In this document: in pieces, positions 18,236 to 47,502 of the stretch | Layout: each line of letters opens with the position of its first letter | How positions within the stretch are numbered: the first letter of the stretch is position 1 | DNA from: Escherichia phage vB_EcoM-813R1 | Length of the DNA stretch: 64,000 bases | Direction: 5' to 3' (one strand) | Sequence record: ON470617.2 | The notes under the pieces: model-generated | The model's input: only the letters and a program-made list of their open reading frames with translations | Database searches by the model: none | What the model was told of the DNA's origin: nothing | Program-made: the position numbers and the translations under genes

Positions 18236-18394
18236 ATAATGCATTGCTTCTCAATGCGGATTAAACTTCCCCAAATTATGGCTGTTTGCTCACCGAGCAT
18301 CGCTCAAAGAAGCACGATTCTTCAAACATATAGATAGTGATAGTGCCACAACTTCTGGCTCTAACGGGCTGGGGAGGCGGCGCTTTGTTGCTAA

Positions 18395-20355
18395 ATGATC
18401 TGGTTTAAAATGGATATGAAAAAAGAAACGATTTTTTCCGAAGTAGAAACGGCTAACAGCAAGCAACTGGCTGTGTTGAAAGCTAATTTCCCACAGTGTT
18501 TTGATAAAAACGGAGCCTTCATTCAAGAAAAATTGCTTGAGATTATTAGAGCATCGGAGGTTGAACTCTCTAAAGAATCATACAGTTTAAACTGGCTGGG
18601 TAAATCTTATGCCCGTTTGTTGGCCAATCTACCACCGAAAACGTTGTTGGCAGAAGATAAAACACATAACCAACAAGAAGAGAACAAGAACAGTCAAAAC
18701 CTGTTAATCAAAGGGGATAACCTCGAAGTATTGAAGCATATGGTTAATGCTTATGCTGAAAAGGTGAATATGATTTACATTGACCCACCATACAATACGG
18801 GTAAAGATGGATTCGTCTATAACGATGATCGCAAGTTTACACCAGAACAGCTTTCTGAACTGGCAGGTATCGAGCTTGATGAGGCTAACCGCATACTTGA
18901 ATTTACCACCAAGGGTTCAAGCAGTCATAGTGCATGGCTGACATTCATTTATCCTCGTCTTTATATTGCACGTGAACTTTTAAAAGAGGATGGAGTAATA
19001 TTCATCTCCATAGACGATAACGAAGATAAACAGTTGGGATTATTATGCGACGAAGTATTTGGGCAAGGTAATTTTGTTGCAAAACTCCCTACAATCATGA
19101 ATCTCAAAGGCAATCATGATAACTTTGGCTTTTCAGATACGCATGAATATATATATGTATACGCTAAAAACAAAGATGTTTGTAGTTTGGGGCAATTCGA
19201 TATTGATGAAAGTGAAGTTGAAAAAGAGTGGGATGAAGATGAATATGGGCTATTTAAAAGAGCTGATACATTAAAGCGTACTGGCCAAGATGCTTTTAGA
19301 AAATCAAGACCAAAAGGTTGGTTTCCGGTATTCATCAATTCAGAAAATAAGGTTTATGTAACAGATGATGATAAACCTCTTAACGAAGATGACTATGTAC
19401 TTTACCCAGTAAGCCCTACGGGTGAAGAGCTTTCATGGTCGTGGGGAAAGAAAAAATAAATGATGAGTTTTATAATCTAATAGTAATAGATATAAAAGAT
19501 GGTAAAAATATCTATAAAAAACAGCGGCCTGCTCTTGGAGAGCTACCAACTAAAAAGCCAAAATCAATTTGGTATAAACCTGAATATAGTACAAGCACGG
19601 CGACAACTGAGCTTAAAAATCTTTTAGGTGCAAAATTATTTGAAGGACCAAAACCTGTTCCTCTTATAACCGATCTTGTAAAAATAGGAACAAAAAAGGA
19701 TTCATTAGTTCTTGACTTTTTTGCTGGCTCTGGTACGACAGCAGAAGCTGTTGCATATTTAAATGAAAAAGATTCAGGCTGTAGGAATTTTATATGCATA
19801 CAAAAAGATGAAGTTATAAATAAAACAAAGAATGCCTATTCTCTTGGCTATAGATCTATTTTTGAAATAACAAAAAAAAGGATACAGGAGGTATTTAAAA
19901 AAAGCACAACCACAAGTGATAATGCGGCTAAAATAGGTTTCAAAGTGATTCATACTATTGATGACTTTAGAGCAAAAGTTGAGTCTGAACTTACGCTCAC
20001 TAATCATACATTCTTTGATGATGCGGTATTAACGCCTGAACAGTATGATGCCCTATTGACTACATGGTGTGTATATGATGGTAGCTTGTTAACAACACCT
20101 ATTGAAGATGTTGATCTTAGTGGCTATACAGCACACTTTTGCAATGGCCGTCTGTATTTGATTGCACCTAATTTTACTAGCGAAGCATTGAAAGCGTTGC
20201 TCCAAAAGCTGGATTCAGATGAAGATTTTGCCCCAAACAAAGTCGTGTTTTATGGTTGTAACTTTGAAAGTGCAAAACAAAGGGAGCTTAATGAGGCGCT
20301 AAAAAGTTATGCTAACAAAAAATCTATTGAGTTAGATTTAGTGGTAAGGAACTAA
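18395..20355 (+). CDS. mod: Type III restriction-modification methyltransferase subunit (EcoP1I Mod-like), one apparent frameshift
   Basis: IYIDPPYNTG (motif IV) precedes DFFAGSGTT (motif I), the beta-class order of type III Mod. ORFs 18395..19459 and 19435..20355 differ by one base in the A6 run 19451-19456. True start probably ATG 18410 or 18416 (MKKETIF). Confidence 0.9.
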
Positions 20356-20357
20356 TC

Positions 20358-23266
20358 ATGTCAAAAGGGTTCACATTCGAAAAGAACTTACCGCATCAGA
20401 AAGCAGGTGTCGATGCGGTGATGAACGTTTTTGTTTCCGCGACATCTCATCAGGAGGATAATGTTTCTATTCGCCTGTTAGTTAATCCAGAATTACGGCT
20501 TACTGAACAGCAATACTATAAAAATATAAAAAAGTTCAGGAACTCAATGGTATTGAACATGTAAAAAATAATTACGATGCTGGAAGCAACGTAATCGATG
20601 TTTCTATGGAGACAGGTACAGGTAAAACGTATACCTACACTAAAACAATTTTTGATCTGAACAAATCATTTGGCATTAATAAGTTTATCATTATTGTTCC
20701 TACTCTATCGATCAAAGCTGGAACAGTGAACTTTTTGAAAAGCGATGCGTTAAAAGAACACTTTAGAGATGATTATGAGCGTGAAATAAAGACTTACGTT
20801 GTTGAAAGTCAGAAAAATGCCGGTAAAAGCACAAAATCGTATATGCCTCAAGCTATACATGATTTTGTTGAAGCTAGTAATTTCAATAAGAAATATATAC
20901 ACGTTCTTGTTATTAACACGGGAATGATTCACTCTAAGAATTTAAATTCCACTTATGATGTTGGCTTGCTTGACAATCATTTTGATTCTCCCTTTTCAGC
21001 TCTTGGTGCGGTAAAACCATTCATTATCATTGATGAACCACATAAATTTCCTACTGGTAAAAAGACATGGGAAAATATAGAGAAGTTTAATGCTCAATAT
21101 ATTATCCGCTACGGTGCGACCTTTAGTGAAGGCTATAAGAATTTAGTTTATCGACTTACAGCAGTGGATGCATTTAATGAAGACCTTGTTAAAGGTATTG
21201 ATGCGTACATTGAGGATATTGTTGGTGATGGTGACGCCAACCTAAAGTTCATTAAATCTGATGGGGAAGAAGTTACATTTGAGCTAAATGAAAATAACAA
21301 GAAAACTTTATTTAAGTTAACAAAAGGTGAATCTCTATCTAAGACACATAGTGCTATTCACGATTTAACTCTTGATGCCTTAGGCAAGAATACAGTAGTG
21401 TTGAGTAATGGTATTGAGCTAAAAATTGGTTGCTCAATAAACCCCTATTCTTACGATCAGACACTTGCTGACAGCATGATGAGGAAAGCTATCAAAGAAC
21501 ACTTTAAGTTAGAAAAAGAGTTTCTGACACAAAGGCCACGCATAAAGCCTCTTACTCTTTTCTTTATTGATGATATTGAAGGTTATCGTGACGGTAATAA
21601 TATTGCCGGAAGTTTGAAAGCTAAGTTCGAAGAATATGTTTTGGCAGAAGCTAATGAACTGTTAAAAATAGAAAAAGATGAGTTTTATAGTAACTATCTT
21701 GAAAAAACAGTTAAAGATATATCTTCCGTTCATGGCGGTTATTTTTCAAAAGATAACAGTGATAAGGATGATAAAATCGAGAAGGAAATCAACGAAATCC
21801 TTCATGACAAAGAGCTTTTGCTGTCTTTAGATAATCCACGTCGTTTCATTTTCTCCAAATGGACGTTGCGTGAGGGATGGGATAATCCTAATGTCTTTCA
21901 GATCTGTAAGCTCCGTTCGAGCGGTAGTACCACATCCAAGCTTCAAGAGGTAGGGCGCGGTTTGCGTCTTCCTGTGAATGAATACATGTGTCGAGTGAAA
22001 GACCGCAATTTTACCCTTAAATATTATGTCGATTTTACAGAAAAGGATTTTGTTGACTCACTTGTTAAAGAGGTCAATGAGAGTTCTTTCAAAGAAAGGG
22101 TTCCAAGTAAGTTTACTCAAGAGCTTAAGGAACAAATCAGGGCTCAGTATCCTGAGCTTTCATCCAGAGCACTAATGAATGAACTTTTCAATGATGAAAT
22201 CATTGATGAAAATGATAATTTCAAAGATTCAGATGCCTACAGCCGCTTAAAATCCAAATATCCAGCAGCATTCCCTATAGGAGTGAAACCAGGTAAAATC
22301 AAAAAAGCTACTGATGGAAAAAGACGCACTAAAATGCGTGTTGGTAAGTTCAGTGAGCTGAAAGAACTATGGGAATTAATCAATCAAAAAGCGGTGATTG
22401 AGTACAAAATAAACAGTGAAAATGAGTTTTTATCCATTTTCAAGTCATTCATGCTCGAAGAAACAGAACGATTTACCAAATCAGGCGTTCATACTCGCAT
22501 TGATAAAATTTACATCCACAATGATATGGCAATGTCGAAAAGCATTGTTAGTGATGACGATGACTTTGCTAAGCTAAACACAATGAGTTATCGAGAGTTT
22601 CTCGATAACTTATCACAGACTATTTTTGTTAAACATGATACTTTACATAAAGTTTTTTGTGATATAAAAGACACTATTAATATCACTGAATACCTGAATA
22701 TTCAAACAATCAGAAAAATTAAATCTGGTTTTAGTAAGTATTTGTTGAACAATTCGTTTAACAAATTCAGCCTCGGATATAATTTGATTTCGGGTTCAAT
22801 TCATCCCACAAAGTTCACAAATGCTGATGGTAAGCCTCTAGACGAGGTATTATCAAGTGATCTTGGTGTATTACAGGATAATTCAAAAGCACCATTAGAT
22901 ACTTATCTTTTGAAGAGGTTTTTTATGATTCAGAGCTTGAAAGGCGTAATATAACAGATAGAGAGATCCAGTCTGTTGTTGTTTTTTCAAAGATACCGAA
23001 GAATTCTATTAAGATCCCGGTAGCTGGTGGATACACTTACTCACCCGATTTTGCTTATGTTGTAAAAACAGCAGAAGGTGATTATCTTAACTTTATCATT
23101 GAAACAAAAAACGTAGATAGTAAGGATAGTTTACGGCTTGAAGAAAAAAGAAAATTGAACATGCCAGGCGCTTTTCAATCAAATAAGTCAGTCTGTTAAA
23201 GTTGAATTCAAAACGCAGTTTGCTAATGATGATATTTATCAGTTAATCAAGAGCGCATTACCATAA
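20358..23266 (+). CDS. res: Type III restriction enzyme subunit (EcoP1I Res-like), several apparent frameshifts
   Basis: Helicase motifs METGTGKTYT and IIIDEPHKF; C-terminal nuclease-like FIIETK; frame changes at A6 run 20528-20533, near 22950 and near 23170; span equals ~969 codons as expected for Res. Confidence 0.85.
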
Positions 23267-23276
23267 TTCCAGTTTA

Positions 23277-23300
23277 AAAGGAGGTGAAAACCTCCTTTTT
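23277..23300. terminator. Rho-independent terminator between convergent res and the mat-position gene
   Basis: AAAGGAGG-TGAAAA-CCTCCTTT stem-loop followed by T-run. Confidence 0.6.
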
Positions 23301-23341
23301 ATGACATCCAACACGACCTGAAAGAAGTGGCGCTCAGGTCG

Positions 23342-23983
23342 TTAAAAATAGTTTCCCTTTCCAGTTAAGATTCCATGTGGAACGCTTTTTTCCGCAAGTC
23401 TCTGTGTGCCGCGAATTATGTTAATCAGTGGGCTTAGTAACGATGGTTCCTGGCGTGGCTCAACTTCTCCAGCCATTGCCCTGATGTAGTCGGAGTTTGC
23501 AACGTTGTTGTATTCCGTTGCGAAGCAGCATAACAACGTCAGAACGTGCTCTGTCGTTATTTCGCTCCAGTTGATGTTGAAAAATTCATCGCCTTTTTTG
23601 TCATGTTCGGAATCGAAGATGCTTTGGTGGAGGATGTATTTGCCGGATTCCTTGCGCGGTAACTTGATCGCTTTCTGGCGTTCCAATTCCTTGTAAATCT
23701 GCATTGCTTCAATCAGTACCGGTCTACCGTTCATGAAGGGATCACGCAACCTTACACGCTGGCCAACTCGACCGGTAATAAAGCTGTTTTCCTCTTCCAC
23801 CAGCACGATAAAACCCTTTTCCTCTTTTTCTCGCAATTCGCGCAGCAGCTGGAGTTCCATATCGCGGCGGCGTTCAGGGTAGCTGGTCCGCTCAGCCATT
23901 ATCAGCTCATTGTTGATCCATGCAGCAGTCATTGACGCCGGTTTGCCGACGCTCATTGAAACAACGCATATTTTCTTATCCAT
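23342..23983 (-). CDS. Hypothetical protein (213 aa); position of P1 mat
   Basis: ORF convergent with res; positional assignment only. Confidence 0.5.
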   Translation of the reverse strand: MDKKICVVSMSVGKPASMTAAWINNELIMAERTSYPERRRDMELQLLRELREKEEKGFIVLVEEENSFITGRVGQRVRLRDPFMNGRPVLIEAMQIYKELERQKAIKLPRKESGKYILHQSIFDSEHDKKGDEFFNINWSEITTEHVLTLLCCFATEYNNVANSDYIRAMAGEVEPRQEPSLLSPLINIIRGTQRLAEKSVPHGILTGKGNYF

Positions 23984-41651: not shown

Positions 41652-41669
41652 AATATTTATTAGAGCAAT
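41652..41669. promoter_or_regulatory. C1 operator
   Basis: AATATTTATTAGAGCAAT. Confidence 0.6.
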
Positions 41670-42175
41670 TATTGTTGGTGGAGAAGCGCGTTTTCATACT
41701 CCCTGACCATTAACGTAAGTACGCCGTGACTCCTGAAAACACGCGCCACTTCAATCTTATCTTCCAGCGCGAACGCAATTTTACTTAGACCAATTTTCTT
41801 CAGGAGATCAATCTTTGCTGGACCGTCATTTCTGTCATCGGTGGCAGGACGCATAGATAGCAAAGGCTCAGCCCCGTTTGTTACGTACTTCCGCAGCCAG
41901 GCTCGTGTTTTATCCCTTGCGATCTCACAGCGCCCGGTTACAAACCAGACCGTGTAAACGTTAAATAACTGGCGCACCATATCAATAACCGGAGTGATGG
42001 GAGTATCGGTGTCACAGGCGAGATTAAACTCGTTCCAGTCCTTTGTTAATGCACCTTTACCTGGTGGCGGAAGCAAATGCAGTCTGTCTTCAGTTGCCTC
42101 TGATATTGTTCCATCAATATCGACTATGACGATATACGGACGTTCCTGGTGTGCGTGTTTATTGAAAATACTCAA
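41669..42175 (-). CDS. HAD-superfamily phosphatase-like protein (168 aa)
   Basis: N-terminal motif I IVIVDIDGTI (DxDGT); resembles polynucleotide 3'-phosphatase / nucleotidase HAD domains. Confidence 0.55.
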   Translation of the reverse strand: MSIFNKHAHQERPYIVIVDIDGTISEATEDRLHLLPPPGKGALTKDWNEFNLACDTDTPITPVIDMVRQLFNVYTVWFVTGRCEIARDKTRAWLRKYVTNGAEPLLSMRPATDDRNDGPAKIDLLKKIGLSKIAFALEDKIEVARVFRSHGVLTLMVREYENALLHQQ

Positions 42176-42247: not shown

Positions 42248-43450
42248 TCAGCGGACGTAAATAGTGCCGCCGTTCTCTTTTTCCCATGCATCGCTACGTG
42301 CATAGCAAACATCGAGAAGTCTTCTTGCCGCTGTTTCCTCTAAACCCAATTCGACAACCAACTGCTCATGACGGCGGGTAACCACATCAAACAGGGTATG
42401 CAACCCTTTAGTTGCCAGATCATCAATGAATTCCGGTTCGAACGGCAGCTCTGCATCTGCCAACATAACCTCTTGCGCCCACTCAACTCGACGGACCAAT
42501 TCCGGGCGGCGGCTTTCCATCTCTTTACAGATCAATTCATGGAAGAACTCTACCCAACCTTCCGGCTGGAACTCGCGGAAAATTGCCAACGGCTGGAAGT
42601 TTGGCATCAACCATTCGTTGATTCGGATATCAATGGCATAGCCCATGTCGCAGCAGAACTGATAAGCAAAGTCCAGCTTAGAAACGATATAAGGACGCTC
42701 GTTATTGAACTCTTTAGGCGATGAGATCCCATAAGCCAGGAGGCGCGGGAAGAAGGAGATTTGCCCTAACGTCGGATGAAGTTTGCTTGCAGGGAAACGG
42801 CGCTCAGTAATGCCATACATTTCCTTCTTGAGCGTCGCAAATTTGGCATTCTCATTAACCAGCGCGGTAACCTCTGCTTTTTTATTAGCAAATGCCACGC
42901 GCGCTTCGCTTGCATCTTTAATAGTTTTTTTGAGCTGTTGGTTAAGGTCGGCGACCTGCTTACGCAGTTCCTGTCGCTCGCTTTTAGCTTTGTTATAGCG
43001 TTTCTCAAGGTTAAAAGGATCAAGTTTCATGATCTCTTTATATTGAGATTTTAGCGTTGAAATCTGTGAGTTCCGCAGTTCAACCATCGCGGTCATTTCA
43101 TTGAGTTTTGTTTCCAGCTCAATGCTTATACGTTCGGCATTATCAGCACGCTGGTTGGCGTCATGCGTCGCATTGTCGATCGCGTCCTGTTGCTGGCGTT
43201 TCAAATGTTCAATTTGTAGCTGAAGCTCTTCAATTTCTTTACCCTTCAGACCGAGATCCAACTGCATATTTTCAGCTGCATCTACCAGGGAGTTATGGCT
43301 ATCAGCTTCTGCGTTATAAACATCAATAAGCTGTGCGTGAAGCATCTCCGCTGACTGAACCGCATTATCAAAAACGCGCTGTGAGGTCATCACAACTAAC
43401 GCGGCGTTGCGCGGCCCGGATGTTCTGGATAATGGCCGGGATACCGGCAT
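42248..43450 (-). CDS. Hypothetical protein (400 aa) with N-terminal coiled coil
   Basis: Long ORF upstream of the HAD gene; no catalytic motif recognised. Confidence 0.5.
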   Translation of the reverse strand: MPVSRPLSRTSGPRNAALVVMTSQRVFDNAVQSAEMLHAQLIDVYNAEADSHNSLVDAAENMQLDLGLKGKEIEELQLQIEHLKRQQQDAIDNATHDANQRADNAERISIELETKLNEMTAMVELRNSQISTLKSQYKEIMKLDPFNLEKRYNKAKSERQELRKQVADLNQQLKKTIKDASEARVAFANKKAEVTALVNENAKFATLKKEMYGITERRFPASKLHPTLGQISFFPRLLAYGISSPKEFNNERPYIVSKLDFAYQFCCDMGYAIDIRINEWLMPNFQPLAIFREFQPEGWVEFFHELICKEMESRRPELVRRVEWAQEVMLADAELPFEPEFIDDLATKGLHTLFDVVTRRHEQLVVELGLEETAARRLLDVCYARSDAWEKENGGTIYVR

Positions 43451-43509
43451 TCAGGACGTCAGGGATAGATACATTTTCGATTGATTGGTTTTGTGCTGAA
43501 GTGATCATT

Positions 43510-43728
43510 TCAAAGTTCCGTATTAGCTTGTGCTTCGGTCATTTTTCCTAAGTATGAAGGAGGAAGGACTACGCAATTTGTATCCAGTCCCTCACCTATG
43601 GCAGCCTGTAAAATTCTGGCTAAGGTGAGTCTCTTGTTGCGATACCTGGTGATGACATGCCTGATACCGCCGGTCGGCGTAACAAAGGCGATCAGCCAGT
43701 AGTGATATTTCCGTCGGAATGGCCACAT
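43510..43728 (-). CDS. Hypothetical small protein (72 aa)
   Basis: ORF preceded by an operator pair. Confidence 0.35.
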   Translation of the reverse strand: MWPFRRKYHYWLIAFVTPTGGIRHVITRYRNKRLTLARILQAAIGEGLDTNCVVLPPSYLGKMTEAQANTEL

Positions 43729-43742
43729 AGTGCACCTTGTAG

Positions 43743-43807
43743 ATTGCTCTAATAAAAACGTGATGAGTGTACATCACGTTTTAAAAATATGGAATTATTA
43801 GAGCAAT
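43743..43807. promoter_or_regulatory. Inverted pair of C1 operators flanking a 20-bp palindrome
   Basis: ATTGCTCTAATAAAAAC (43743-43759), palindrome CGTGATGAGTGTACATCACG (43759-43778), AATTATTAGAGCAAT (43793-43807). Confidence 0.6.
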
Positions 43808-43897
43808 ATTATTCTGATTCTCGCTCAAAAAATGAGCTGATAAGGGGGAGCCAATCCTCTGACACTTCGCGAGGTCGCGGTTTGCCGTGGAAAAAGA

Positions 43898-44509
43898 TTA
43901 TTCGGCAGTCTTTTGGTAATGCCCCATTCCCCTGGAGTAACGCGCGCTCGCATATTTTGAACCAGGTTCCACAACATCGGCCTTGTAACTTACAAACCAT
44001 CCTGGATACAGATCCTGAAATGCTGGTGTATCATCGCCCATAACCTTTCGTAAGAACCCCTGGTCACCCCAGCACTCAGTAGTGACACAACGAGAAATCC
44101 AACCTTCCGGATCTTGCCAGAATGAACTCCAGATATGCGCTTTAACACTATTTGGTATCCACAGGGCACCGCTACCACGATATTGTGGATGGTAAAAATC
44201 CCTAAGCATGGTGAAGCTGGTTGGTGGATGCTCTAGGATTGGGCGTATATCACCGGCAATAACCGTGTCCAAATCCAGATAGAACAGATCATCGGTTATA
44301 TCCGGTCGGAACAACTCGATTTTCGCCCACCAGCCACGGCACTTTTGCCACTGGTTGATCAATGGGATAACTTTGACGCCAGGTACATGTAAACACTTCA
44401 GGTCTGTCAGGCAAATAATTTCATAGTCTTTTGGCAGTTGATTAACCAGCCACTGCACATCGGAAGCGTTATAGTCACCACCAGAGCGAAGAACTAAAGC
44501 AATCTTCAT
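43898..44509 (-). CDS. Putative GT-A-fold glycosyltransferase-like protein (203 aa)
   Basis: DxD-type motif in [13 protein letters not shown]; overlaps ppp stop by 4 nt. Confidence 0.45.
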
Positions 44510-45198
44510 GCTGCACCATCACCTTTCACTTTCATCAATGTCAGGTTTCCGCAAAATACGGCACCAGTGTCGATATACTGCTGATTCCAGAATGTCTTCG
44601 GGCTTTTCACCGGAGTGTGACCAAAGATAAAACGATCTGCGCCCGAAATTTCGCCACCAATATCATCCATCGAATCACTGATACGCTCGCGCGCCCAGAC
44701 AACGTTGAAAAGCGGCACCTCCTTACCGAATTGGTATTCATTATCCGGATAGTCGGCATGGGCTATAACGATAGTTTCTTGCCCGGTGTTCAACTCAATG
44801 ATATAGGGCAGACGCTTTACCAGCTCCACCAGCGCCCTGGCTAATATTTCCTGATCAGTGTCCAGCATGAAGAACCATTGTCCGCCATTCATTAGCCAGT
44901 TATTCACGTTGCCATCAGGACTTAACGCATCGAGCATCAACCGCTCATGGTTCCCCATCACTGCCCTGAACCAGGGCATCTGCAATAGTTCCAGACATTC
45001 GACATTTTCAGTACCGCGATCGATAAGGTCGCCGACCGATATCAGTAAATCCTGCGCCGGGTCAAAATCCACACGATGGAGTTCGGACATCAGTCTGGTG
45101 TAGCAACCATGCAGATCACCAACAACCCAGACATTCCTGTATTTGGTACCGTCGATACGGTGATAAATTGTGGGTGCCATCATGTATTCTTCAGCCAT
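44506..45198 (-). CDS. ppp: Ser/Thr protein phosphatase (calcineurin-like metallophosphatase)
   Basis: Motifs GDLHG, GDLIDRG, GNHE as in lambda PPase; 230 aa. Confidence 0.85.
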
Positions 45199-45806
45199 TC
45201 TTTAAGAGTCATCTGCGGAATACCTCCCATTTTCCCGCATGAAACAACGTCAATCTGTTCACGCGCAGACTGGAATAACAAAGGCAGGTGACTTAGATTT
45301 TTTGGCGTGCCGCCGGAGTGAACGCGTAGTTCTTGCGTAGCGTCAACGCCCACCAGAGCTACATGTTTGAATCCGATATGGAAAGCCAGGTTCAGAGCAC
45401 CATATGCACTATTGCCGCTGGCAATTTCATTCTCATCTTCGCAAAGGCCGAAATGTGCGGACCAGCGCCACGCCCACCACTCGGGAGAATTCGTATTTTT
45501 TGGCTCCATGCCGCGTTCAGCCACACGACGGAAGCACAGAACGCCATCTCTGACTTCACGTTCTTTAACATCGGGTAGTGCCATGCAATAACAAACACCA
45601 CGGCGACGGCGGCCACGACCAACGCGCCGCATATTGTCTGGGGATGGATCAAGGGTGAAAAAATAAGAAGCGCGGTTCAGCCAGTCGATGGCCCCATTGA
45701 CCGCTATAATCGGCACTCCGCGCGGCGCAACAAAGTTTGCGGCGCTTGGGCCACTGCCGACGATAATAACGCGATCACTGCCTCTAAATTTATTCTTGGG
45801 AAACAT
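45180..45806 (-). CDS. GT42/DUF115-fold (sialyltransferase-like) protein, paralog 2
   Basis: VIIVGSGPS...[11 protein letters not shown]...[26 protein letters not shown] matches the Cst-II / MptE-like pattern (GNGPS, CNQF, SG..A..A..G..L.G.D). Confidence 0.5.
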
Positions 45807-46366
45807 TGAATTGCACTGCTCCTACTTGCATTCAAAATATGTAAATCTGCGTGTTTTTTGCGGGTATCCAGGAACTGCTGTTGCCATTTTGAAATAGACA
45901 CCTGCGTTGGATTCCGTAGGGCTTGAGGGTGCGCGCCATGCCAATGAAGGCCGTTTTGCAGAGAACAGTCATAGCCGACTAATACCACTACTTCAGCCCC
46001 TGATTCAGCAGCCAGACTGATAGCCTGCGCGCCGCTATTTACCCCTTCCGCCGGTCCACAATATCGCCTGTACTCCAACGAAAATGATTTCGCCGCCGCC
46101 AGGTTGGCTGTCACTTTGCGGAACCTCCCTCCCGGTATGGTGGAACCGTATTGCTTCCACCATGACAAATCACCGGCGTATAAGGCATAAATGTCATCGA
46201 ACATCTGCCAGGAATTGTTAACCGCGATGATTGAACAGCCAGTTTTTTCTATAGCAGCACAGTCCTCACGAGTGAGTGACGGACCGCTACCGACACAAAA
46301 AACAGTCCTAGTCGCCCTGGGTGGTATGTTCATTCTCAGCTGCAAATTCAGCCTCCAGGCGAGCAT
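45704..46366 (-). CDS. GT42/DUF115-fold (sialyltransferase-like) protein, paralog 1
   Basis: VFCVGSGPS...IIAVNNSWQ...VNSGAQAISLAAESGAEVVVLVGYD; ORF tail overlaps paralog 2 by ~100 nt, so its true stop is probably obscured by an indel. Confidence 0.5.
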   Translation of the reverse strand: MLAWRLNLQLRMNIPPRATRTVFCVGSGPSLTREDCAAIEKTGCSIIAVNNSWQMFDDIYALYAGDLSWWKQYGSTIPGGRFRKVTANLAAAKSFSLEYRRYCGPAEGVNSGAQAISLAAESGAEVVVLVGYDCSLQNGLHWHGAHPQALRNPTQVSISKWQQQFLDTRKKHADLHILNASRSSAIQCFPRINLEAVIALLSSAVAQAPQTLLRRAECRL

Positions 46367-46529
46367 TCATTTCAGCGATTACAGGGTCCACTACAGCATC
46401 TGTTTCCTGTTCATTACGCGGCATGACCGATGCCAGCGACTCATAATTAACCTTGGATGACACGATTATTCTCCCGATGTTAAAGTGCACTACCACAAAG
46501 AGCGCACATGCACTAATTAATTTATTATT

Positions 46530-47108
46530 TTAAGCAGCATGCAACCACTTATCGCCGTTCAATACATGCTCAATAGCCTCACCCTTTTTAAGACTTATGT
46601 ATTCCAGGATGGCGGTAATCGCTTGTTCTGCACCGTACGCAAGAACGACGTAGTAACCTTCCTCTCTAAGCCTGCGCATCCAGGCGATCTGCTCTTTCGT
46701 CGGGGCTTTACCATTTGGTTCTTTAAGCTCAATTCGCATGCCGTGATAAATACCGCATGCTTTATCGAGACTCATGTCCGGATAACCTTTTTTCTGCCCT
46801 TCAGCCTTCATTTTCCCGGCGGTTGCTTTTGAACGTTTCCCTCCGTTAGGCGTTGCATGCAACAGCTCATAGATGTCAGGGTGCTTGCGTTCGAAGTAAT
46901 CAAAAATGAAAACCTGCTCGAAGTGCTCGCAATTTCCGTCGCGCAGGTCTGGGTTCTTTGCAAGTGCTGCAAGTGCCTTCGCATGTGGAGAAACTTCTTT
47001 TACCGGCGCAAGCGATAAGAATGGATCCTTTTTGGTTTTTGGCCTGGACCGCCCCTTATTTCGACGCTCACTAAAAGCCTGAAACTCTTCCTCAGTAAAG
47101 CGCAACAT
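46530..47108 (-). CDS. VRR-NUC domain nuclease-like protein (192 aa)
   Basis: PD-(D/E)xK-type region ...GYPDMSL...RIELKEPNGKAPTKEQIAWMRRL. Confidence 0.55.
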   Translation of the reverse strand: MLRFTEEEFQAFSERRNKGRSRPKTKKDPFLSLAPVKEVSPHAKALAALAKNPDLRDGNCEHFEQVFIFDYFERKHPDIYELLHATPNGGKRSKATAGKMKAEGQKKGYPDMSLDKACGIYHGMRIELKEPNGKAPTKEQIAWMRRLREEGYYVVLAYGAEQAITAILEYISLKKGEAIEHVLNGDKWLHAA

Positions 47109-47110
47109 AA

Positions 47111-47356
47111 TCAGTCAAATCCTGCCGGTCGCATGCCATATTTACGCTGTTTTGCGGCCTGCTCTTCCCTGTGCCATTGCGCACATTCAGCGTCACAATA
47201 AATGCCTGATTCAATCGATTCATTGCAGTAACGACACTTCCCTGTAAATACCTGGCTCACGACCTGTGCCTGCTTTCTGATGTTATCGATGGCCATGTCT
47301 TTGAGAGCTTCTAACTGATTCATGCTCAGCTCTGCATCATCAACACGTTCTGCCAA
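47111..47356 (-). CDS. TraR/DksA-like C4 zinc-finger protein (81 aa)
   Basis: CRYCNESIESGIYCDAEC with a coiled N-terminus. Confidence 0.5.
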   Translation of the reverse strand: MAERVDDAELSMNQLEALKDMAIDNIRKQAQVVSQVFTGKCRYCNESIESGIYCDAECAQWHREEQAAKQRKYGMRPAGFD

Positions 47357-47413
47357 TTTTGTTTCCTCGTGAAGAACCTACTTAAGGGCAGAATGATACA
47401 TTTCACAATCAAA

Positions 47414-47430
47414 ATTGCACTAATAATTTT
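47414..47430. promoter_or_regulatory. C1 operator between divergent gene blocks
   Basis: ATTGCACTAATAATTTT. Confidence 0.55.
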
Positions 47431-47502
47431 CTTTTATTGAGTTAAATATTCAACAAATGACTAGCGGTAGAATCACCATCATCTATTTCTGGCAGGCTGA
47501 CT

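Follow-up and report, generated by a model that had tools for sequence, protein, structure and literature searches.

Mycobacteriophage capsids bear glycans that are added by phage-encoded transferases (Freeman 2023, cited in PMC11256854), and in Che8 and its relatives these glycosyltransferases modify the major capsid proteins. Here we describe a set of genes for which we propose a similar role. They lie on the minus strand at positions 43898–47356 of a 64,000-nucleotide stretch of Escherichia phage vB_EcoM-813R1 (ON470617.2), which was analyzed as a whole and which we refer to as the window. The genes make up the pmgL–pmgQ region of phage P1, long without explanation, and three of them, pmgO, pmgP, and pmgQ, form a conserved cassette of transferase-fold enzymes. 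The mycobacteriophage enzymes reportedly act on the tail tube as well and can be lost without preventing plaque formation; they are not known to comprise a DUF115 pair and a minimal GT8 enzyme. Mycobacteriophages infect Actinobacteria, and a glycan on P1 is hypothetical. The gene positions also differ, as the transferase genes of the F1-cluster phage Maravista are located near the 3′ end of the genome and not beside the capsid gene (PMC11256854).

Other described enzymes resemble single members of the cassette. Maf flagellin glycosyltransferases (PDB 5mu5) are 632-residue, three-domain proteins, whereas PmgO (220 residues) and PmgP (208 residues) consist of the catalytic domain only; Maf is expected at flagellar loci, whereas PmgO and PmgP are found in phage structural or late regions. 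Of the GT42 sialyltransferases CstI and CstII (PDB 2p56 and 1ro7), CstI shares its fold with PmgO, and the sequence similarity to CstII is not significant. E. coli K-12 is not known to make sialic acid, pseudaminic acid, or cytidine monophosphate (CMP)-N-acetylneuraminic acid (CMP-Neu5Ac), and the donor of PmgO and PmgP must therefore differ from those of the Maf and Cst enzymes. WaaZ, the transferase of the third 3-deoxy-D-manno-octulosonic acid (Kdo III) in the E. coli lipopolysaccharide (LPS) core, uses CMP-Kdo as donor; it is chromosomal and acts on the lipid-linked core. The GT8 enzymes LgtC, glycogenin, GlyE, and WaaJ share with PmgQ the DxD, DQ, and H-x-x-G-x-x-K/R-P motifs, but PmgQ is smaller and has no match in Pfam or NCBIfam. 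The gtrABC-type serotype-converting genes are likewise phage-borne sugar transferases that alter a surface glycan. These systems rely on membrane proteins and act in lysogens, whereas the P1 cassette contains soluble enzymes only and, according to the deposited annotation of P1, is under C1 repression.

Conservation and folds of PmgO, PmgP, and PmgQ

PmgP profiles were scanned over species-dereplicated genomes and viral contigs, and each P1 protein was mapped with hidden Markov models (HMMs). Forty loci, 13 P1-like and 27 non-P1, had enough flank around PmgP to be counted. PmgQ lies within 6 kb of PmgP in all 40, PmgO does so as well in 35, and the common gene order is O-P-[slot]-Q. The window follows this order on its minus strand, with pmgO at 45704–46366, pmgP at 45180–45806, and the intact frame of pmgQ at 43809–44509 as the three core members. 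The loci are distributed over Gamma-, Beta-, and Alphaproteobacteria, Bacteroidota, and Gemmatimonadota, with Enterobacterales, Zhongshania, Microbulbifer, Methylophilaceae, Brevundimonas, Sinomicrobium (Bacteroidota), and Longimicrobiales among the hosts; every named host is diderm. At 50% identity the PmgP family falls into 564 clusters, of which 104 reach E ≤ 1e-30. A scan of viral contigs with the PmgO profile returned P1 copies alone and no diversity.

The linkage of the three genes is confirmed by natural fusions, namely PmgO–PmgP (P0051), PmgP–PmgQ (P0342 and P0407), PmgQ–PmgP (P0426), and PmgQ–PmgP–methyltransferase (P0392). In the Xanthomonas jumbo phage XacN1, a TylF-type O-methyltransferase is fused to a PmgQ-like domain. 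The slot between PmgP and PmgQ is variable. It is filled by ppp in P1, P7, and close kin only; elsewhere it holds a class I S-adenosylmethionine (SAM)-dependent, FkbM-type, or Methyltransf_24 methyltransferase or a weak GT1- or GT2-like protein, or it is empty. We read PmgO and PmgP as glycosyltransferases mainly because four unrelated methyltransferase types (class I SAM-dependent, FkbM, Methyltransf_24, and TylF) recur in this one slot and one type of sugar O-methyltransferase is fused to the GT8-like domain. Only PmgO–PmgP–PmgQ is the functional unit. An earlier interpretation made from the letters of the window (the sequence-only reading) had seen three sugar-transferase-fold proteins in the block as a modification module, and this much is borne out by the folds, the linkage, and the fusions.

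PmgO and PmgP are ancient paralogs in the DUF115 superfamily, together with the CMP-sugar transferases Maf and CstI/II. Their profiles align to each other with an hhalign probability of 98.2% (E = 3.4e-14) at 23% identity, PmgP carrying an insertion of about 35 residues relative to PmgO, and the mean column identities of the two families are 45% and 59%. PmgP matches PHROG 2111 (E = 3e-132), and many close relatives have a precomputed match to Pfam PF01973, the fused homolog P0051 scoring 44.6 bits. A structure search showed that the PmgO fold is shared with Maf, MptE, and CstI, Maf glycosyltransferase being the best match. A fold search of BFVD returned mostly unnamed phage proteins. PDB sequence searches with the PmgO and PmgP profiles gave nothing significant, and an NCBIfam search with the two proteins gave no match. 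In PmgO, H141 and H143 are invariant and lie within a loop modelled at low confidence; either may correspond to the catalytic His (His188) of the GT42 lid region. The description of the pair as tandem GT42/DUF115-like paralogs is right in the homology and in the DUF115/Maf/CstI fold. The sequence-only reading had likened the pair to arms-race loci, but the two genes are no recent arms-race duplication and instead represent two old, separately conserved orthologous families that are sometimes fused into one protein.

The same superfamily may extend to WaaZ, at weaker sequence-level support. E. coli K-12 waaZ (L187:5346–6197) matches the Pfam MptE-like family over residues 1–195 with E = 6.9e-7, under the cutoff; WaaZ matches the PmgO and PmgP profiles with E of 2–3e-4, and its hhalign probability of 40–48% is marginal. 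These matches suggest that WaaZ has a DUF115/sialyltransferase-like fold; we use them for a hypothesis on the donor and not to classify PmgO and PmgP.

PmgQ has the predicted fold and the motifs of a GT8-type retaining glycosyltransferase. In a structure search it showed a compact GT-A fold with its closest neighbors in GT8, and the GT8 fold is shared across about 200 of the 233 PmgQ residues (LgtC, glycogenin, GlyE, and WaaJ). PmgQ contains DxD, GDQ, and FHGxPRP motifs; D79-L80-D81 is invariant in the family, and H208, G209, P211, and P213 are near-invariant. The segments LYLDADVV and HYTGATKPW of E. coli WaaJ align with the DxD and C-terminal motifs of PmgQ. Searches of Pfam found no family, Glyco_transf_8 included, for the PmgQ of the window at E ≤ 0.1 or for the intact homolog P0172 at E ≤ 0.01, and NCBIfam gave no match; the protein falls into a phage family of its own, PHROG 1962.

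The copy of pmgQ in the window is frameshifted. One G is lost from a run of five in P1 and P7, leaving four (43929–43932, minus strand), and the product is cut to 203 residues with a stop at 43898, whereas the intact frame encodes 233 residues and runs to 43809. The lost tail holds the near-invariant H-G-x-P-x-P motif of the family, and the cassette of the window is probably crippled, to judge from this frame. The sequence-only reading was thus right about a GT-A-like protein, but the 203-residue ORF (open reading frame) that it described is a truncation. The identical 203-residue product is found on four public contigs, among them Escherichia phage vB_EcoM-813R1, in a cluster of 2479 members of which nearly all have 230–233 residues. 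The deletion may be a genuine mutation or a homopolymer sequencing error. One 203-residue PmgQ record (URC10419.2) is misnamed 'Ppp'.

The genes themselves are known, and their description as a unit is apparently new, as we found no paper on it. In the deposited P1 annotation they carry the placeholder 'putative morphogenetic function'; the misspelt name 'norphogenetic protein' has spread over hundreds of NCBI and UniRef PmgO and PmgP records. Two of the proteins have already been labelled 'glycosyltransferase' and 'alpha-2,3-sialyltransferase' by automated pipelines. Our literature searches found no functional studies of pmgO, pmgP, pmgQ, or of DUF115 proteins in phages, and no description of the trio as a unit, of its fusions, of the tailoring slot, or of the capsid-adjacent distribution.

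Some loci depart from the common arrangement. On a Serratia plymuthica chromosome (L004, 2513–15785), two PmgO-like copies and a PmgP/PmgQ pair are spread over 13 kb and interspersed with Big_1 (immunoglobulin-like) proteins, a lipoxygenase, and a lipase, an arrangement that looks like a rearranged or decayed prophage. In metagenome-assembled genomes of Pseudescherichia (L089–L093), PmgQ is convergent with PmgP, and PmgO is about 4 kb away on the opposite strand. A 213-residue gene that follows the cassette in a Citrobacter prophage (L003; PHROG 'minor tail protein') was considered and rejected, being unrelated to PmgQ and not recurrent in neighbor clustering.

Acceptor, donors, and competing explanations

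We consider it likely that PmgO, PmgP, and PmgQ are a glycan-building cassette. With slightly less than even confidence, we propose as the reading of the whole a three-enzyme cytoplasmic glycosylation cassette whose acceptor is most likely a virion structural protein; the virion as target, taken by itself, is plausible if uncertain. PmgO and PmgP would act as a pair and, together with PmgQ, would assemble a short glycan on a common acceptor, which would be methylated in other phages. The donors would be host-made sugar nucleotides, a uridine diphosphate (UDP)-hexose in the case of PmgQ and, more speculatively, CMP-Kdo in that of the DUF115 pair; the annotated neighbors include no gene for the synthesis of sugar nucleotides. 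CMP-Kdo is an attractive candidate because, as far as is known, it is made by every diderm host, because the named hosts of the cassette are diderm, and because WaaZ may belong, if weakly, to the same superfamily. If the acceptor is a virion structural protein, the progeny would carry a glycan coat that is dispensable for laboratory plaque formation.

A virion acceptor is favored by the positions of the cassette next to capsid or tail genes, by the best structural matches, and by lytic-only control in P1. In 8 of 24 non-P1 viral or genomic loci, the cassette stands directly 3′ of the genes for TerL, portal, protease, and HK97-type major capsid protein, and head–tail connector and tail-tube genes come next downstream. 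Two more prophages have the same capsid-adjacent layout, and in a Brevundimonas locus the cassette has the tail terminator on one side and the major tail protein on the other. The best structural matches, Maf, GlaT1, GlyE, and glycogenin, are protein-directed transferases. In the deposited P1 annotation the block is under control of the C1 repressor, i.e. it is expressed in the lytic state only. In P1, pmgL, M, N, O, P, Q, and ppp have each been deleted in frame (Gonzales et al. 2022; PMC9024508). In that study, only pmgA, B, C, G, and R are essential among the P1 knockouts and the remaining ones form normal plaques; a genome-wide CRISPR interference (CRISPRi) screen also found pmgL, M, O, P, ppp, and pmgQ non-essential (PMC10695390). 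The missing plaque phenotype does not argue against a virion target, with which it is compatible.

Several observations weigh against this proposal. The cassette also occurs in non-structural contexts, flanked by lysis genes and terS in phiNP-like prophage loci of Citrobacter rodentium and next to ribonucleotide reductase in Sinomicrobium and XacN1, and the capsid-adjacent synteny may stem from one HK97-like lineage rather than from independent insertions. PmgO and PmgP of the window score 23.4 and 20.9 bits against PF01973, under the curated cutoff of 34.6, and a profile search reached CstII at an E of only 0.36–0.72 over 36 residues, which is not significant. GT8 and WaaZ-like enzymes are also classic enzymes of the LPS core. 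The P1 virion proteome paper reports no glycan, though it did not look for one, and the annotated PpmgN promoter was missed in a simple scan for promoters.

The strongest rival explanation, which we regard as unlikely, is that the cassette acts on the cytoplasmic side of the inner membrane and alters a glycolipid of the host envelope, the LPS core being the most plausible one. Progeny or superinfecting phage would then fail to adsorb to infected cells and debris. The LPS core is the P1 receptor, and the hosts that could be named are all diderm. No membrane or periplasmic component was seen in any cassette examined or in the annotated neighborhoods. GT8 is the family of the LPS outer-core transferases, WaaJ and PmgQ can be aligned at the DxD, DQ, and HxxGxxKPW motifs, and the Kdo III transferase WaaZ shows a weak affiliation with the PmgO/PmgP superfamily; the similarity to WaaZ and WaaJ is, however, low (hhalign probability 33–48%). 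In lambdoid prophages the cassette occupies the place of a typical moron, with lysis genes on one side and terS on the other, whereas in many phages the genes are placed inside head or tail gene clusters. Since the annotated C1 control would keep the block silent in lysogens, superinfection exclusion in lysogens, which the sequence-only reading had offered as one function, is disfavored.

An improbable alternative is that the cassette glycosylates a protein in the host cytoplasm to take over the cell or counter its defences, much as some bacterial GT-A toxins glucosylate proteins of their hosts. It would suit this alternative that the top structural matches are protein-directed transferases, as would the more distant GT-A matches, which include SetA and the glucosyltransferase domains of TcdA and TcdB. 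It requires, however, a host target conserved from Bacteroidota to Enterobacteria, and the variable methyltransferase/transferase slot suggests a tailored glycan and not a single inactivating sugar. The annotated sigma-70 promoter under C1 control is compatible with early expression, but a location inside late structural operons fits poorly, and there is no growth phenotype on standard hosts.

It is quite improbable that PmgO and PmgP are instead pyrophosphokinases, MptE-like or thiamine-pyrophosphokinase-like, that act on a small molecule or nucleotide and hand their product to PmgQ in a metabolic or anti-defence pathway. Their fold is shared with MptE, but its best match is the Maf glycosyltransferase, and what recurs beside the pair is a GT8-type transferase along with O-methyltransferases of the sugar type (TylF, FkbM) and additional transferase-like proteins. 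The slot content fits a glycan-building pathway and is a poor fit to a pterin or thiamine kinase.

Neighboring genes and layout of the block

The sequence-only reading had taken all six genes that it saw as one operon for DNA, virion, or surface modification, e.g. anti-restriction DNA glycosylation with arms-race paralogs; this is very improbable, for although the genes share one orientation and are closely spaced, stop and start codons overlapping at pmgP/ppp and ppp/pmgQ, the P1 deletions plaque normally and show normal restriction, the paralogs are ancient, Ppp, PmgM, and PmgL accompany no cassette outside P1-like elements, and ppp occurs without the trio in phage D6. The restriction test of deletion mutants that had been suggested is negative in the published P1 data: in the accessible part of PMC9024508, the non-essential knockouts show the parental restriction phenotype on EcoA, EcoB, and EcoK hosts, and Table S3 lists the pmgQ deletion explicitly as 'normal restriction'. 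Normal plaques and restriction argue against DNA glycosylation, and no hydroxymethyl-pyrimidine or other base-modification genes lie beside the cassette in the annotated loci. On these two grounds DNA glycosylation was rejected, and the six-gene DNA-modification scheme is largely refuted for type I restriction.

Three of the six genes encode proteins whose assigned domains hold to varying degrees and which are not parts of the module, as P1-like elements alone have them together with the trio. The assignment of Ppp (44506–45198, minus strand) as a Ser/Thr phosphatase was correct; it is a lambda-type metallophosphatase that matches the lambda phosphatase (PDB 1g5b) over residues 11–229 with E = 5.8e-95 and Pfam Metallophos with 59.4 bits. 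PmgM (46530–47108, minus strand) was likewise rightly recognized as a VRR-NUC nuclease, given its match to a solved structure of that type (PDB 4qbl, E = 3.5e-17), although its Pfam VRR_NUC score of 21.3 bits is just under the cutoff of 23.8. For PmgL (47111–47356, minus strand; 81 residues), called a TraR-like zinc finger, the PHROG 54 match ('DksA-like zinc-finger', E = 1.6e-12) and the four cysteines read from the translation (C41-x2-C44-x9-C54-x3-C58) agree with that name, but there is no Pfam TraR/DksA match, the best Pfam hit being another treble-clef family (E = 0.009). An NCBIfam search with PmgL and PmgN gave no match.

Mapping with the HMMs confined PmgL, PmgM, PmgN, and Ppp to P1-like elements among the cassette loci, and ppp is missing from 5 of the 13 P1-like loci and from all 27 non-P1 loci. 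In phage D6, ppp is present at 90% nucleotide identity among unrelated surrounding genes. Hence ppp is independently mobile, and Ppp, PmgM, PmgL, and PmgN are neighbors from the P1 lineage and not components of the cassette.

Over the 5-kb query 43000–48000, the window is 99.6% identical to P1 and about 98% identical to P7, in which pmgL is named upf81.0, pmgM upf81.2, pmgO hdmB, pmgP hdmC, ppp ppp, and pmgQ hdmD. All six minus-strand ORFs of the sequence-only reading are present in the ORF list of the window. It had overlooked a seventh gene, pmgN (46308–46463, minus strand), a 51-residue ORF between pmgM and pmgO with a GTG start and GGGAG upstream. The CRISPRi screen scores pmgN as essential (efficiency of plating 1.4e-2), yet the pmgN deletion is viable and the downstream genes are non-essential.

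The block, an operon-like cluster in the sequence-only reading, is two transcription units and not one operon, because the deposited P1 annotation (AF234173) places a C1 operator (Oppp/Op83; 46507–46523, plus strand) and a predicted sigma-70 promoter between pmgM and pmgN. The operator separates pmgL–pmgM from pmgN–pmgQ, pmgN being the first gene after it, and neither the operator nor its flanks differ between the window and P1. The operator deviates from the searched consensus at four positions and was therefore passed over by our pattern search, which found operator-like sites enriched across the window (14 observed, 0.34 expected). The pattern search and the P1 annotation together locate O26/Op82 (47414–47430, plus strand) in the divergent control region of pmgL and gene 26, where the P1 annotation also has the late promoter LPpmgL upstream of pmgL, and, at the other end, Op86a (43791–43807, minus strand), which directly follows the pmgQ stop and controls pmgR–pmgS, and Op86b (43743–43759, plus strand).

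Two gene overlaps in the block are unusually long, 103 nucleotides between pmgO and pmgP (45704–45806) and 59 between pmgN and pmgO (46308–46366). Both overlapping ends are within the coverage of the family profiles, and residues 1–13 of PmgO are modelled at low confidence; the start of PmgO may instead be the internal Met12.

Further features of the window lie apart from the cassette. A low-GC island at 18300–23600 (0.34–0.36 compared with about 0.48) corresponds to res and mod, which encode the type III restriction-modification system of P1/P7, together with mat, and is ordinary for P1. Pap (41669–42175) is annotated as a classical acid phosphatase, but its match is to the HAD-type phosphatase domain found in polynucleotide kinase-phosphatase (Pfam HAD_PNKP, E = 7.8e-12). 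PmgS (42248–43450) is a coiled-coil protein of the PHROG 'PmgS-like head morphogenesis'.

Implications for P1 and other phages

P1 is among the most-used phages in bacterial genetics, yet these genes carry a placeholder label. The conserved cassette, its fusions, and its tailoring slot turn what had been a general idea of a modification module into a defined hypothesis. If LPS is the target, the cassette would represent a new receptor-masking mechanism made of soluble enzymes only. The broadest form of the virion proposal is that P1 and hundreds of phage lineages on Gram-negative hosts coat their capsids or tails with a short glycan, which a Maf-like pair and a GT8-like enzyme would build from host sugar nucleotides, possibly including Kdo, and which would be methyl-capped in many of them. 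In this full extent we regard it as doubtful; if it is true, virion glycosylation would be widespread in phages outside Actinobacteria. Should the virion be the target, phage glycan coats would not be confined to mycobacteriophages, and the finding would bear on the immune recognition of therapeutic phages and on P1-based delivery vehicles.

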